From sequence record OZ035795.1: DNA of 64,000 bases, one strand, 5' to 3'. Source of the DNA: Krischvirus LF73P4. Below the pieces are notes generated by a model, which was not told where the DNA came from, did no database searches, and saw only the letters and a program-made list of their open reading frames with translations. Positions 5,009 to 47,976 of the stretch are shown piece by piece (within the stretch, counting starts at the first letter, position 1; each line of letters begins with the position of its first letter). The position numbers and the translations under genes were made by a program.

Positions 5009-6574
5009 ATGTTTAGTAGATTAAAAATGCTTGCGCGTTGGGCTGATTTTGACAACGACAAATACGAAGAACAAATTAAAGATAAAGCAGAGTCTATCGC
5101 CGCACCTAAAAACAATGATGGTGCTACGGAAGTAGAAATTAATGATAATTTACCTGCTAGCGCGTGGAACTCTCTTACCCAGCAATTTTACAGCACCGAC
5201 CAGAAAATCAGCACAACTAAGCAATTAGTTAACACATATCGCGGTTTGATGAATAACCATGAAGTCGAAAACGCTGTACAAAATATCGTTAACGATGCGA
5301 TTGTATTTGAAGAAGGTCATGAAGTTGTTTCATTAAATCTTGAGGCGACTGGTTTTAGTGAATCTGTAAAAGAGCGCATTCATGAAGAATTTAAAGATCT
5401 TTTAAACACTATCCAGTTTGATAAGCGTGGTCAGGATATGTTCCGTCGCTGGTATGTCGATTCGCGTATTTTCTTCCATAAGATCATCGGTAAAAATCCA
5501 AAAGATGGTATCGTAGAATTACGCCAGCTTGATCCACGAAATCTTGAATATGTTCGCGAGATCATTACAGAAGACACCCCGGAAGGTAAAATTTATAAAG
5601 CAACGAAAGAATATTTCATTTACACCGTAGGCAATAGTTCTTATTGCGCGGGCGGTCAAGTATTCTCTCCTAATAGTCGCGTTAAAATCCCGCGTAGTGC
5701 TATTACATACGCTCACAGCGGCTTGATGGATTGCGATGATAAATATATCATTGGTTATTTGCATCGGGCTGTTAAGCCAGCAAACCAGCTTAAATTGTTG
5801 GAAGACGCAATGGTCGTTTATCGTATCACGCGTGCACCGGAACGCCGAGTGTTCTTTATTGATACCGGAAACATGAACAACCGCAAGGCTGCACAGCACA
5901 TGAACTCAGTGGCACAGTCTTTTAAAAACCGCGTTGTTTATGATGCATCGACTGGTAAACTTAAAAACCAGCAAGCAAACCTATCAATGACAGAGGACTA
6001 CTGGTTACAGCGTAGAGATGGTAAAGCAATCACCGATGTTACTACTTTACCGGGTGCATCCGGTATGAGTGATATCGATGATATTCGCTACTTTAACCGT
6101 AAATTATATGAAGCGTTGCGTGTGCCATTGTCACGTAGCAATCTCTCCGATGCTAATATGGTGATCGGTGGTGACGGTTCAGAAATTACTCGCGATGAGT
6201 TGGAATTTTCGAAATTCATTAGAACTCTGCAATCACAGTTTTCGGAAGTATTGCGCGATCCTCTGAAATATAATCTGATTCTCAAAAATGTAATTACGGA
6301 AGACGATTGGGATCGTGAAATAAATAATATCAAGGTGGTTTTCCATCGGGACTCTTACTATACAGAAGTTAAAGACGCGGAAATTTTAGAACGTCGAATC
6401 GGTCTAATCGAACGTATTACACCTTACATTGGTAAATATTTCTCTAACCAGACAGTGATGCGTGACATTCTGAAATATACCGATGACCAGATGGACACCG
6501 AGAAGAAACAGATCGAAGAAGAAGCGAACGATCCGCGCTTTAAACAAACTCCCGATGAAATAGAGGATTTTTAA
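5009..6574 (+). CDS. 20: portal vertex protein
   Basis: 521 aa; long collinear matches to recalled T4 gp20 (e.g. RRWYVDSRIFFHKII, GYLHRAVKPANQLKLLED). Confidence 0.95.
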   Translation: MFSRLKMLARWADFDNDKYEEQIKDKAESIAAPKNNDGATEVEINDNLPASAWNSLTQQFYSTDQKISTTKQLVNTYRGLMNNHEVENAVQNIVNDAIVFEEGHEVVSLNLEATGFSESVKERIHEEFKDLLNTIQFDKRGQDMFRRWYVDSRIFFHKIIGKNPKDGIVELRQLDPRNLEYVREIITEDTPEGKIYKATKEYFIYTVGNSSYCAGGQVFSPNSRVKIPRSAITYAHSGLMDCDDKYIIGYLHRAVKPANQLKLLEDAMVVYRITRAPERRVFFIDTGNMNNRKAAQHMNSVAQSFKNRVVYDASTGKLKNQQANLSMTEDYWLQRRDGKAITDVTTLPGASGMSDIDDIRYFNRKLYEALRVPLSRSNLSDANMVIGGDGSEITRDELEFSKFIRTLQSQFSEVLRDPLKYNLILKNVITEDDWDREINNIKVVFHRDSYYTEVKDAEILERRIGLIERITPYIGKYFSNQTVMRDILKYTDDQMDTEKKQIEEEANDPRFKQTPDEIEDF

Positions 6575-13293: not shown

Positions 13294-13731
13294 TTATTTG
13301 TTGATAACGATCTGATTTCGGCGAATGGTAACATTACTCTTAGAGATGATCAGATCATCCGGCACTACGTTAGTTTTGTATGGTTGGAATCGAACAAGCA
13401 TCTGATTGCGTTTAGACCCTTCCTTAATCTTGATTTCCATCTGGATATTGTTGCCTACGTGAGCAACCGCAATTTCACCTTTATTCTCATAGACCCACTT
13501 GCTGGTAACGTCTCCAGCAAAAGCCTTAATAACTTGCAATGCTTCGTCGTATGCGGTAGAGCTGTGAACTTTCAGAAGTCCAGCCGTAGCAAGACGGGAG
13601 CAGGTGATCGCCGGAGATTGCCAAACATCAACATTAATTTGCTCAATCAGAGTAACACCGCCCTGGTCAACTGCTTTGAATGCTTCGAACATTGCCTTTT
13701 TCATTGCTACGTGGTTTTTACGGAATTTCAT
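13294..13731 (-). CDS. hypothetical protein
   Basis: 145-aa ORF with GAGGTGA RBS and downstream terminator. Confidence 0.5.
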   Translation of the reverse strand: MKFRKNHVAMKKAMFEAFKAVDQGGVTLIEQINVDVWQSPAITCSRLATAGLLKVHSSTAYDEALQVIKAFAGDVTSKWVYENKGEIAVAHVGNNIQMEIKIKEGSKRNQMLVRFQPYKTNVVPDDLIISKSNVTIRRNQIVINK

Positions 13732-13777: not shown

Positions 13778-14053
13778 TCAGGACATTGCCCGTTTGAATG
13801 CGTCCATTATAACAGTGTTATTTGGCATGTCAACACGTTTTTGAACTTTATTTTTAATTTTTTTGTTGATGTGGTGTTTACGATAAACAACCTTTTCACG
13901 GCTGGCGTAAGCCTCTCGTGCATCTTTTACCATCAACCATGCCTTAGCCGCATCTTGTCCGCTGATCCCGCCAATCTTTTTAGCAATATCAACAAAATTA
14001 AGACCGTGGTCTTCGCGTAGCATGTAAACCATTAACGCTGTTTTCTTGTCCAT
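13778..14053 (-). CDS. hypothetical protein, possible helix-turn-helix
   Basis: ORF trimmed to internal ATG that overlaps the upstream stop (ATGA); segment LNFVDIAKKIGGISGQDAAKAW looks HTH-like. Confidence 0.4.
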   Translation of the reverse strand: MDKKTALMVYMLREDHGLNFVDIAKKIGGISGQDAAKAWLMVKDAREAYASREKVVYRKHHINKKIKNKVQKRVDMPNNTVIMDAFKRAMS

Positions 14054-45349: not shown

Positions 45350-45685
45350 TTATCCTTTCTTAAACAAATTGCGAAGCCAGTATACAAACGGGATTTCTTT
45401 AAACTTGAACTTGTCAATAGTTAATTCTTTAGTAGCAAGATGAATACCATAAGCATCATGTGTAACTATATGCCATTTTCTATAGTCCAAATGTGAACAA
45501 CCGTCTGGATCTAGGTTAATAAGAGTTTCTCGCTCACTAGAATTATTTTTCCACAATTTTGTAATAGGATCGCACATAATTCGACCTAGCGTACCATGAA
45601 TAATCTCACAACGGTAAAGTTTTCCAGCAGTGAGATAGGCGCACCCGTCATAGTCGGTATAAACAAACACTTCTTTAACACTCAT
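45350..45685 (-). CDS. small protein, tandem family (copy 3, internally repeated)
   Basis: Start at MSVKEV after GGAGTA; shares motifs with the next two genes. Confidence 0.45.
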   Translation of the reverse strand: MSVKEVFVYTDYDGCAYLTAGKLYRCEIIHGTLGRIMCDPITKLWKNNSSERETLINLDPDGCSHLDYRKWHIVTHDAYGIHLATKELTIDKFKFKEIPFVYWLRNLFKKG

Positions 45686-45745
45686 TTTAATACTCCTTTG
45701 TTGTTTCGATGGGGGTATATTACTACCCCCGATCATGGGTGTCAA
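45686..45745 (-). promoter_or_regulatory. PeSL-type early promoter/stem-loop cassette
   Basis: TTGACA-17-TAATAT; hairpin GGGGGTAGTAATATACCCCC. Confidence 0.55.
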
Positions 45746-45991
45746 CTACTTTTTCAAGATTTTTTTGAGTGCATTCCAAAGACCTTTATTCCCAGGTTGT
45801 TTTGGTTCTTCGATCAGTGTCCATGTTCGACCGTCTAAGTGTGCACAATTTTTAAGACAAATAAAAATCTGGTGTCCCTTATCATCACGGATATAACCAC
45901 TATTCGCAAATCTTTCATGTGGTGTATATTCATACAGTGTATTAGGTGTAATATACTTGCGGTTACTATAAGGTGTCATCACATACATCAT
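45746..45991 (-). CDS. small protein, tandem family (copy 2)
   Basis: ATGA overlap with upstream stop; GYIRDDKGH..HLDGRTWTL parallels copy 1. Confidence 0.45.
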   Translation of the reverse strand: MMYVMTPYSNRKYITPNTLYEYTPHERFANSGYIRDDKGHQIFICLKNCAHLDGRTWTLIEEPKQPGNKGLWNALKKILKK

Positions 45992-46182
45992 GGTACTAAC
46001 TCCCAACGATCACCGCGAAGATGAGAACATCTACCATCAAGAAGTATTGTAATACGATAACCTATATCATCTTTGATGTAACCGATTGTCGGTGGATTTT
46101 CGTCGTCTCGTGCCGGGGTAAAATCATACATCTTTCCGGGCGTAATATCTTGTCCTTTATTGCTATTGGTATAAACTTGCAT
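45988..46182 (-). CDS. small protein, tandem family (copy 1)
   Basis: AGGAGA RBS; GYIKDDIGY..HLRGDRWEL. Confidence 0.5.
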   Translation of the reverse strand: MQVYTNSNKGQDITPGKMYDFTPARDDENPPTIGYIKDDIGYRITILLDGRCSHLRGDRWELVP

Positions 46183-46203: not shown

Positions 46204-46902
46204 CTAACCACGGGTATAGTGTTCCAGAACAACTGTCAGATGAATATATTCTAATAGATCTTTCCAAAAGTCAACATCTGGTTCTTCCGGCATACCGTTT
46301 TTCTTTGCCTCTTCACGCGAGAGTTTAACACGCTCGTAGAGATCTTTCAATTCTTCCCGCACATTATCAAAGGTTCTTTCTCCTAACTTACACGCTAAAA
46401 TAGAAGAACGTCGCGCGAGCGGGAATTGTAGATCACCTGTCTGATAGATTTCAAGTAGCTGATAACCAACACGCAGAGCATGAGAAAGATCTTTCCAGTT
46501 ACTGAAATACTTTTCAGATTTGGCTACCTGCTTTTTGAGATAGCCAGACAAACCCCACATACCAACATGATAGAATTTATCTCGATGTGTTCGGATGTAT
46601 TCCCATTCTCTGGAGGATTCAATCAACATGTTACTAGGAGCGTGCACCATGTCAATAGCGCCGATATCGCCTTTACATGCCAGATTGATAAACCGTTTTA
46701 GACTGAACATATTAACATCAATATCGTCTTTGGTGTTCTTGATACCTTGACCGCTAGTGCTTTGGTCATAGTGTTCTTTCATAGATCCTAAGATAATTTC
46801 TTTCGCAGTCGGAACAAAGATACCACGATAATCTTTATCTGAATTTTCAGTATCAAGGCCGTACAAGTGAGATCCGAAGACCATTTTAACCATTGTATGC
46901 AT
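46204..46902 (-). CDS. nucleotidyltransferase-fold protein (Pol-beta superfamily)
   Basis: N-terminal GSHLYGLDTENSDKD fits the G[GS]-x(9-13)-DxD signature. Confidence 0.5.
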   Translation of the reverse strand: MHTMVKMVFGSHLYGLDTENSDKDYRGIFVPTAKEIILGSMKEHYDQSTSGQGIKNTKDDIDVNMFSLKRFINLACKGDIGAIDMVHAPSNMLIESSREWEYIRTHRDKFYHVGMWGLSGYLKKQVAKSEKYFSNWKDLSHALRVGYQLLEIYQTGDLQFPLARRSSILACKLGERTFDNVREELKDLYERVKLSREEAKKNGMPEEPDVDFWKDLLEYIHLTVVLEHYTRG

Positions 46903-46920: not shown

Positions 46921-47514
46921 TTAAACGTATTCAGCAACAACATTATGTTTAAAATTACCGCTCCTTTTTGGATTTGGATTTTTCAATCGACTATGTATTA
47001 AATTTTTGTTGTATCCGGTTGCTTTAGACGCTTCGCCAATACTTTGATAAACAACACCATTAACACGAATCGGACGAGACTTATTAAACAGTTTATTCAA
47101 TCCGGCATCATATGCATGGTTTTGGTTTTCTTGCCTCGTTGCGATCTCAAGATTCCAAACACAATTACAAGATTTTACCCCACTTTTATGATTAATTTCA
47201 AGACCTTCACAATCACCTATAAAGTGTTCAGCAACTAGTCTATGAATATAGCTATATTTCTTACTTTCCCCATCATGCAAGCATACATTATAATAACCAT
47301 CACCAGCGCGTTTAGGTCGGAGTAGTTTACCTTTAACACGTTTTATAGTAGGGAACTCACCAAATTGATTTCTCTGGATAAACGGAATCTCGCGGTCTAA
47401 TGAACGGATTCGACCATAGTTAGACACTTGATAAAAACTTTCATATCCTTTAATTGGCTTCCATATCTCAGGGATTTCTACACCATCAATAACAACAAGT
47501 TTAAATTCTTCCAT
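46921..47514 (-). mobile_element. free-standing HNH homing endonuclease
   Basis: NUMOD4-like GYESFYQVSNYGRIRS plus HNH region HRLVAEHF..EINHKSG..NLEIATRQENQNH. Confidence 0.75.
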
Positions 47515-47526
47515 ATTTCACCTCAT

Positions 47527-47557
47527 AAAAATAAAGCCAACCCTTTCGGATTGGCTT
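47527..47557 (-). terminator. rho-independent terminator
   Basis: AGCCAACC-ctttc-GGATTGGCT with A-run on plus. Confidence 0.55.
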
Positions 47558-47562
47558 GTCGA

Positions 47563-47976
47563 TTACATAGATTCCGTAAAGGTACGGGTGATAATATCAA
47601 GTTGTTGTTCGCGTGTCAAGGCGTTGAAGCGGGTAGCATAACCACTGATTCGAATTGTAAGCTGCGGGTACTTCTCAGGATGTTCAACCGCATCAAGAAG
47701 AGTCTCCCGACGCAGTACATTCGCGTTGAGATGATGACCCGCGTTACTATTTACCCCGTTATCAATTGCTAAAGGACGGAAGCTAGTTGTGTGCAGTGCC
47801 AGCGAATCGACGTCTTCTGCGGTGATCACATGGTCTTCTGCGAAAGTTTTACTAACAATTACTTTAGCGCCGATCAGTGCTTTCGGTTCGGATACCAGAA
47901 TCATAGGCGCGAAGTGTCCACCAATAATAGTACCTTTATGCTCACCTTTCATGATTTGAATTGCTTTAAATTCCAT
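47563..47976 (-). CDS. GrcA/YfiD-like autonomous glycyl-radical cofactor
   Basis: C-terminus ..[33 protein letters not shown] nearly identical to recalled E. coli GrcA; a T4 homolog (Y06I) is known. Confidence 0.8.

Follow-up and report, generated by a model that had tools for sequence, protein, structure and literature searches.

The window analysed here, a stretch of 64,000 nucleotides from Krischvirus LF73P4 (OZ035795.1), carries on its minus strand, at 46921..47514, a free-standing gene for an I-HmuI-type homing endonuclease, placed between nrdC.11 and vs.6, a gene for a GrcA-like glycyl-radical protein. It is likely that this endonuclease attacks the radical-motif region of vs.6 in phages that lack the endonuclease gene, and that the gene homes in this way into the interval between vs.6 and nrdC.11. 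The window belongs to the RB49-like relatives of T4 that form the genus Krischvirus, and its closest match is phage FL20, at 98.5% identity.

The gene is an intact open reading frame (ORF) that starts with an ATG at 47514..47512 and stops at 46923..46921; the plus-strand ORFs found over the same positions are short shadows of the real minus-strand gene. Its parts are as follows.

46921..47514, minus strand: free-standing HNH homing endonuclease gene, 197 codons (Pfam and AlphaFold2 model).
47275..47469, minus strand: NUMOD4 N-terminal DNA-binding region, residues 16-80 (Pfam; aligns with the N-terminus of I-HmuI).
47122..47250, minus strand: HNH catalytic core, residues 89-131, with N108-H109, N121 and N130 (alignment to I-HmuI).
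46981..47082, minus strand: C-terminal helical DNA-binding module, residues 145-178 (weak Pfam match and model helices).

NUMOD4 is matched over residues 16-80 with 67 bits against a Pfam cut-off of 23.4 (E 1.7e-18) and HNH_3 over residues 89-131 with 39.9 bits against 24.8 (E 3.2e-10); residues 145-178 match the I-TevI DNA-binding domain (I-TevI_DNA-bd) below threshold (E 0.0076). PHROG 59, “HNH endonuclease”, matches the protein as well (E 3.7e-40), and NCBIfam holds no model matching it. The sole sequence match in the PDB is I-HmuI from Bacillus phage SPO1 (1U3E; E 2.3e-12, 28% identity), which is also the sole significant PDB match found by Foldseek (E 2.8e-11 over 195 columns) for the AlphaFold2 model, computed with 72 homologues as input (predicted local distance difference test 93.9, predicted template modelling score 0.82). 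The model places strands at residues 6-60 and helices at 159-166 and 170-178, and its C-terminal part has a faint Foldseek match to 1i3j, the I-TevI DNA-binding domain. Pfam and the model together give the module order NUMOD4 DNA binder, HNH core and helical C-terminal module, the same as in I-HmuI, including the N-terminal WK.IKGYE..YQVSN.G motif.

H109, N121 and N130 are invariant across 120 homologues and align with H75, N87 and N96 of I-HmuI. Residue 108 is Asn in 112 of the 120, whereas the equivalent in I-HmuI is the metal-site Asp74 (D74). Judged by its residues, the catalytic core is intact, since the three positions are invariant and Asn at 108 is the norm of the subfamily. Sequence and model thereby point to an I-HmuI-type NUMOD4-HNH homing endonuclease with a predicted nicking or cleavage activity; for I-HmuI itself, nicking has been shown experimentally. 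HNH domains occur also in the terminase-associated accessory proteins of cos phages, and a protein that assists packaging or another DNA transaction, rather than a mobile element, could be imagined behind such a domain. This is extremely improbable: the architecture and fold are those of I-HmuI, the locus is an early region by regB, vs.6 and nrdC.11, and about 50 of 58 close relatives do without the gene, which is thus not needed for growth. A packaging-accessory role was thus rejected for a gene that is both dispensable and far from terminase.

The distribution of the gene was followed in 58 related GenBank records of Krischvirus, which are otherwise 94-98% identical. Eight of them encode the endonuclease (MIZ4, MIZ5, pEJ01, FL20, AV108, JK32, FL04 and G37-3), at 95.9-99.5% identity, and after these the next-best phage matches fall below 60%. 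In the eight carriers the slot is always the same, between the following two genes, and in about 50 relatives, such as RB49, Phi1 and GEC-3S, this site is empty.

47563..47976, minus strand: vs.6, GrcA-like glycyl-radical gene and proposed target (Pfam Gly_radical, E 9.8e-16).
46204..46902, minus strand: nrdC.11 nucleotidyltransferase gene, the downstream neighbour (Pfam RlaP).
46925..47523, minus strand: segment inserted relative to the empty-site phages, 599 bp replacing 18 bp (GAGATTGCATCATATCAT).

The vs.6 product contains the motif RISGY and scores 114.5 bits with the NCBIfam GrcA model TIGR04365, against a cut-off of 170. Because the NCBIfam GrcA models match below their cut-offs while Pfam Gly_radical scores above its own, “GrcA-like” is the correct wording, and an equivalence to GrcA would not be justified. 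With the ribosome-binding region of nrdC.11 and the terminator hairpin of vs.6 as anchors, the interval measures 615 bp in filled and 35 bp in empty alleles, and the junctions are identical in all. Common to filled and empty alleles are CAGTTGATTAA on the nrdC.11 side, where the endonuclease stop codon falls, and CATAAAA on the vs.6 side. The original prediction, which gave no strand, had read NUMOD4 and HNH motifs in ORF 46921-47514 as a free-standing mobile insertion and had asked for a comparison of loci with and without it. The ORF is exact, both domains score above their Pfam cut-offs, and the comparison yields an intact I-HmuI-type enzyme at one precise intergenic site in 8 of 58 genomes, thus an optional gene, accompanied in its carriers by a private vs.6 end.

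All eight GenBank alleles are intact and, in informative pairs, the ratio of non-synonymous to synonymous polymorphism (pN/pS) is 0.11-0.22; the gene is under purifying selection. It is also compositionally foreign, with a GC content of 35% and 23% at third codon positions (GC3), against about 40% in its neighbours and a GC3 of 35-42% in four of five of them (the endolysin gene has 28%). In neighbor-joining trees of both flanks the filled genomes are scattered among the empty ones. Because these trees lack support values and the region is mosaic, the scatter is only moderate evidence for mobility. The same facts have been considered under another reading, in which one ancient insertion was spread by ordinary homologous recombination and kept as a relic that no longer moves or as a domesticated nuclease, for a benefit to the phage (for example the exclusion of co-infecting relatives) or for the transcription of nrdC.11. 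Purifying selection would fit any useful function, mosaicism is general in the region, and the insertion removes a candidate nrdC.11 promoter, which would favour its retention, as has been argued for segG and gene 32 of T4 (PMC2988022). Nonetheless the ORF and its catalytic residues are intact in all alleles, and marker exclusion is itself an outcome of homing and so not really an alternative to it.

It is the sequence next to the insertion that points to vs.6 as the target. Divergence between filled and empty alleles was measured in 50-bp windows on the anchored flanks. On the vs.6 side it amounts to 23-51% over the first ~260 bp and to 1-5% beyond, with a maximum of 11% in one variable stretch about 1 kb out; in the nrdC.11 coding region it is 1-3% up to the junction, with no endonuclease-linked divergence. 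Two features delimit the linked part.

47515..47652, minus strand: endonuclease-linked block, made up of the spacer, the terminator and the last ~30 vs.6 codons to R-I-S-G-Y (alignment).
47638..47652, minus strand: glycyl-radical motif codons R-I-S-G-Y, the putative homing-site region, which form the distal edge of the linked block.

The block is 23-40% diverged from the empty alleles, uniform in all filled genomes and different in all empty ones. Only the eight filled records contain the window-type block at an identity of at least 97%, and all other phage records reach at most 81%. Among further public assemblies with the exact vs.6 protein of the window, 10 of the 10 shown have the 197-aa gene after a gap of 48 nt; when IMG/VR was scanned for exact matches to the window-type vs.6 block, none turned up. 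At the protein level, the empty alleles end in (A/S)RTFTE(SL/AM) and the filled alleles have another, recoded end. Next to the block lies an island of ~38 bp that the RB49-type empties share with most of the filled alleles (JK32 departs from it at several positions), and then, at ~47691..47790, a distal mosaic tract whose version varies even among filled genomes and whose outer ends vary. A linked block with one-sided divergence is the pattern that would be expected from a break inside vs.6 with obligate co-conversion as far as the endonuclease gene.

In its own right, the middle of vs.6 (~47691..47790) comes in four or more strongly different versions, with a 3-nt indel among the differences, next to 5′ halves that are 98-99% identical, and recombinant combinations occur, e.g. 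in kvi, G2248 and G37-3/FL04. These versions may be scarring from repeated break repair.

A real homing endonuclease could also recognise the intergenic spacer or the terminator, with the diverged vs.6 end as a hitch-hiker or as the carrier of a promoter. The insertion does take the place of 18 bp of spacer found in empty alleles, the T-run that follows the terminator differs too, intron-encoded enzymes are classically protected from themselves when the insertion disrupts their site, and a promoter specific to filled alleles within the block could alone explain the linkage. We nevertheless hold a spacer target to be unlikely, as it would lead one to expect co-conversion on two sides, and the nrdC.11 side shows none.

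The relatives of the enzyme speak to the same question. A search of public proteins returned a small group, P0002-P0012, 42-60% identical to the endonuclease and forming one clade without outsiders in a neighbor-joining tree of 72 homologues. The members examined, 11 of 11, lie in or just after a glycyl-radical gene, on unrelated phage contigs that represent at least five independent contexts. Such a neighbour was found for none of 82 distant relatives, namely 80 from IMG/VR, all out-of-clade and used as the background set, and two more distant homologues, taken as controls, that sit among replication genes (Fisher p = 2.7e-8 for at least five independent contexts against 0/82). Likewise, a glycyl-radical C-terminal motif lies within 2.5 kb in 10/10 in-clade loci and in 0/80 out-of-clade IMG/VR loci. 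This clade-wide association is in our view the strongest evidence for the proposed target. The arrangements are as follows.

P0002 (60% identical): same slot between vs.6 and nrdC.11, on RB49-like metagenomic contigs that have yet another vs.6 end, private to them.
P0004: begins 1 nt downstream of an uninterrupted GrcA-like gene.
P0006: overlaps with a GrcA-like gene at the end of the latter.
P0005, P0007, P0009, P0010 and P0011: Gly_radical ORF stops directly after the radical glycine, with the HNH ORF in an intervening sequence.
P0012 (locus L022, 3198..4123): splits a glycyl-radical gene at the same motif (...QLTVRI* before and ...RFNALTKEQKQDIVTRTFHTQF* after the HNH gene), with no room for an intron.

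In the contigs of the P0002 type, vs.6 agrees with the window version at 98-99% identity in its 5′ half. At L022 the Ser-Gly codons are unrecoverable by simple joining, and the arrangement could be a dead gene or an unusual one. A clade tied to glycyl-radical genes in contexts that share neither the spacer nor nrdC.11, with intron-type relatives inserted at the radical motif and not after the gene, argues against the spacer as recognition site. As for an insertion that no longer moves, the 60% identical variant P0002 holds the same slot with its own private vs.6 end and independent relatives lie in or after glycyl-radical genes of unrelated phages; repeated, site-specific invasion would therefore be required, and we regard such an insertion as quite unlikely. 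Both of these readings appear less well supported by the sequences than one in which vs.6 itself is attacked. The suggestion in the original prediction that the enzyme targets the adjacent glycyl-radical gene thus gains support from comparison on two sides, through a linked block that reaches to the radical-motif codons and through the clade-wide association.

At five interrupted loci (L023, L024, L025, L029 and L110) the intervening sequence breaks the Tyr codon next to the radical Gly behind its first base, at a position whose equivalent in the window lies between 47640 and 47639. The intervening sequences are 759-783 nt long (L023 3372..4154, L024 3117..3875, L029 2157..2939), the genes around the five loci are otherwise unrelated, and the missing C-terminal piece (AV.F..LTKEQQDD...) is found downstream of the HNH ORF. 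Their 5′ splice site has a U and their 3′ end a G, the P1 helix covaries, and RVSG-Y-AV... is restored when exon 1, whose last base is U, is joined to the base that follows the G. In the P1-type helix the exon end pairs with an internal guide and a U·G pair lies at the splice site (GUGGCU/GGUCAC vs GUGGGU/GCUCAC), and a long-range helix connects the sequences on either side of the ORF. The RNAalifold prediction, made on the sequences without the ORF, has 48 pairs, of which 11 show compensatory changes. An intron-encoded status was considered for the window gene too and set aside, since vs.6 is uninterrupted and ends 48 nt before the gene, and the spacer consists of the terminator hairpin alone. 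I-HmuI is intron-encoded, in a DNA polymerase gene, whereas the window gene is free-standing beside the GrcA-like gene; intron-encoding like that of I-HmuI is found in members of the endonuclease's own clade.

We lean somewhat towards the wider view that the whole clade is specialised on the DNA of the glycyl-radical motif and occurs in three states, intron-encoded, gene-splitting and free-standing, and that the last 30 codons of the neighbour were recoded in carriers, possibly for escape and for an early-type promoter. If this is true, the clade would offer natural stages of the passage between the free-standing and the intron-encoded form, and GrcA-like genes of phages would turn out to contain introns. 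In the literature, a keyword search returned no description of such introns and nothing that links glycyl-radical cofactor genes with homing endonucleases.

From these comparisons we infer a course of events that covers cleavage activity, exact target, nick or double-strand cut, self-immunity and promoter use. During co-infection of a carrier and a non-carrier phage, the enzyme would bind the endonuclease-free vs.6 at or near its R-V-S-G-Y codons, about 130 bp from the endonuclease gene, and would nick or cut there. Recombination-dependent repair would then copy donor DNA from the break through the vs.6 end and the endonuclease gene into the recipient. The recoded vs.6 end would protect the carrier from its own enzyme. 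Expression would come most likely from read-through of the vs.6 terminator, helped by the early-type promoter within the recoded vs.6 end. As with I-HmuI, MobA and MobE, which nick one strand and are preferentially inherited all the same (PMC2988022), the break may be a nick in one strand rather than a double-strand cut. A host gene as target was also considered and dropped, because the E. coli genes tdcE, grcA and pflB, ~73% identical to the RB49-type block, are no closer to it than the presumably immune window allele.

Such a course has counterparts in the “intronless homing” of free-standing endonucleases of T4. MobE and MobA (HNH) as well as SegG and SegF (GIY-YIG) are encoded by optional intergenic genes in the orientation of their neighbours, and the likeness to the window gene lies in this arrangement (PMC2988022). 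The T4 enzymes target a nearby conserved gene at a distance and the markers in between are co-converted; gene 32, for instance, is listed as the target of SegG (PMC2988022, citing Liu et al.). Homing has been demonstrated for the T4 genes, whereas here, in another phage genus, it is predicted from comparison. The closest conceptual precedent for the proposed geometry would be F-CphI of cyanophage S-PM2, which is encoded by a free-standing gene beside its target psbA and is specific for the insertion site of a group I intron found in psbA, a case of “collaborative homing” (PMC6083498). F-CphI has a motif of the Endo VII type and is unrelated in sequence to the window enzyme. In S-PM2 it is an intron in the neighbouring psbA that gives immunity, whereas vs.6 of the window is intronless and recoding would be the source of immunity; in the clade relatives, unlike F-CphI, the endonuclease gene itself lies inside the intron.

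Three signals bear on the expression of the gene.

47519..47524, minus strand: ribosome-binding site GAGGTG, 4 nt before the ATG (read from the sequence).
47534..47557, minus strand: vs.6 intrinsic terminator hairpin between vs.6 and the endonuclease gene, a 10-bp stem followed by a T-run.
47591..47619, minus strand: candidate sigma-70 promoter TTGACA-17-TATTAT with TG, 11/12, inside vs.6 codons.

Filled and empty alleles alike keep the terminator hairpin. Masking of the ribosome-binding site by a hairpin, as for I-TevI or Aeh1 mobE, was ruled out, since the centroid fold consists of the terminator stem only and leaves the site free. The embedded promoter is present in 8/8 filled alleles and in 0/9 empties, nor is it found in JSE, even at a threshold of 8/12; by chance, ~0.1 matches would be expected per 2.6 kb, or 0.008 with the TG. 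The same consensus occurs at ~18 intergenic early-type sites in the window, 29-46 nt upstream of ORFs. Early promoters of RB49 fit this consensus, and no MotA or middle promoters were found in RB49 (PMC1524935). In T4, the promoters of segA, segG, mobC and mobD lie in the 3′ end of the upstream gene and are of the middle or late type (PMC2988022), whereas the candidate in the window belongs to the sigma-70 early type. No late promoter of the T4 type (TATAAATA) that could serve the endonuclease gene was found within ~4 kb. The empties have a weaker promoter-like sequence, TTGGCT-17-TATGAT with TG, 19 nt upstream of the nrdC.11 ribosome-binding region, which the insertion removes; insertions of free-standing endonuclease genes in T4 can likewise displace resident promoters (PMC2988022). 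Elsewhere in the window, at 13833 (minus strand), upstream of ORF 13294..13731, there is a perfect-class sigma-70 match, TTGACA-16-TATAAT with TG, whose geometry is the same as that of the embedded promoter (28 nt before an ORF stop and 74 nt before the next ORF); the ORF that follows it has 145 aa and is not an HNH gene.

Several observations weigh against vs.6 as the target of an active homing endonuclease. T4-like phages recombine freely, and a patchy distribution alone is no proof of endonuclease-driven spread. The linked block could have come along passively from the donor phage instead of being the determinant of immunity. Moreover, RB49-type and JSE-type empties differ from each other at many positions of the proposed target, so that the enzyme would need tolerance. 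The embedded promoter fires into the terminator hairpin ~27 nt downstream and may contribute little, and the P0002-type cassette is without it. Finally, the Rfam model Intron_gpI gave no match to the intervening sequences of the relatives, with E<=0.01 on whole loci and E<=10 on the 5′ part of L024. As the group I model did not detect them, they are best called group-I-like; the intron reading is kept because of the splice-site rules, the restored frame and the covariation.

Part of this was known. The gene is labelled “HNH endonuclease” or “putative HNH endonuclease” in the GenBank records of MIZ4, JK32 and vB_EcoM_G37-3, and hypothetical in those of FL20, AV108, pEJ01 and FL04; the three annotations concern the same slot and name the domain, without an analysis of target, linkage or mobility. 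Optional endonucleases are also familiar in T4-related genomes, with two such genes in RB49 and seven in JSE (PMC2993671, Table 5). New are the proposed target, a recoded vs.6 end that is perfectly linked to the endonuclease gene and contains a candidate promoter, and relatives at the radical motif that are intron-encoded or split the gene. A concrete prediction follows for the target, the R-V-S-G-Y codons of vs.6 in RB49-type phages, and natural pairs of donor and recipient are held in culture collections, with MIZ4 or FL20 on one side and RB49 or MIZ2 on the other. It also appears that intron-encoded and free-standing relatives of one enzyme act on the same gene, and that through a private recoding near a conserved catalytic motif a selfish element can drive change at the protein level in its neighbour. 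RB49-like phages are used in phage cocktails, and where related phages are mixed such elements lead to mosaicism and to the local exclusion of markers. As an example for phage biology the case is tidy and testable, and a specialist would find it neat rather than surprising.

The genes around the endonuclease (regB, three small paralogous ORFs, nrdC.11, vs.6, vs.8 and the endolysin gene) are all on the minus strand. The three small ORFs, of 131, 86 and 64 aa, lie in tandem between regB and nrdC.11 (45350..46182, minus strand); they are mutual paralogues (PHROG 6261 and 15978) without a known function.

JSE has a different gene in the same slot between vs.6 and nrdC.11, with weak NUMOD4 and HNH_3 matches (L002 2718..3248) and 28% identity to the window protein, and a 56% identical relative of that gene lies between the endolysin gene and vs.8 in metagenomic contigs (L018 3081..3608). 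KFS-EC (L011) has an empty site and yet the JSE-type vs.6 end; the JSE slot gene is therefore without a private flank. The interval between vs.8 and the endolysin gene is a second endonuclease hotspot, 1.1 kb away, where a 191-aa HNH_3+AP2 gene is found in JSE, JK32, FL04, KMB43 and G2248 and in 4/10 metagenomic loci (e.g. L002 4396..4971, L003 4463..5038 and L008 4466..5040). This gene is split into two ORFs in pEJ01, it is absent from the window, where the spacer has 62 bp (48604..48665), and it assorts independently of the endonuclease gene at 46921..47514. The P0002-type RB49-like contigs carry a gene of 260 aa that weakly matches NUMOD3 and is flanked by tk and by the gene of a zinc-binding protein (L019 6780..7562, also in L020 and L021); it is probably another optional endonuclease gene. 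The metagenomic phage contigs with intron-type relatives carry several tRNA genes, and one of them, L024, contains at 5295..5893 a full-length ROOL RNA, with 258 bits against a gathering score of 99.

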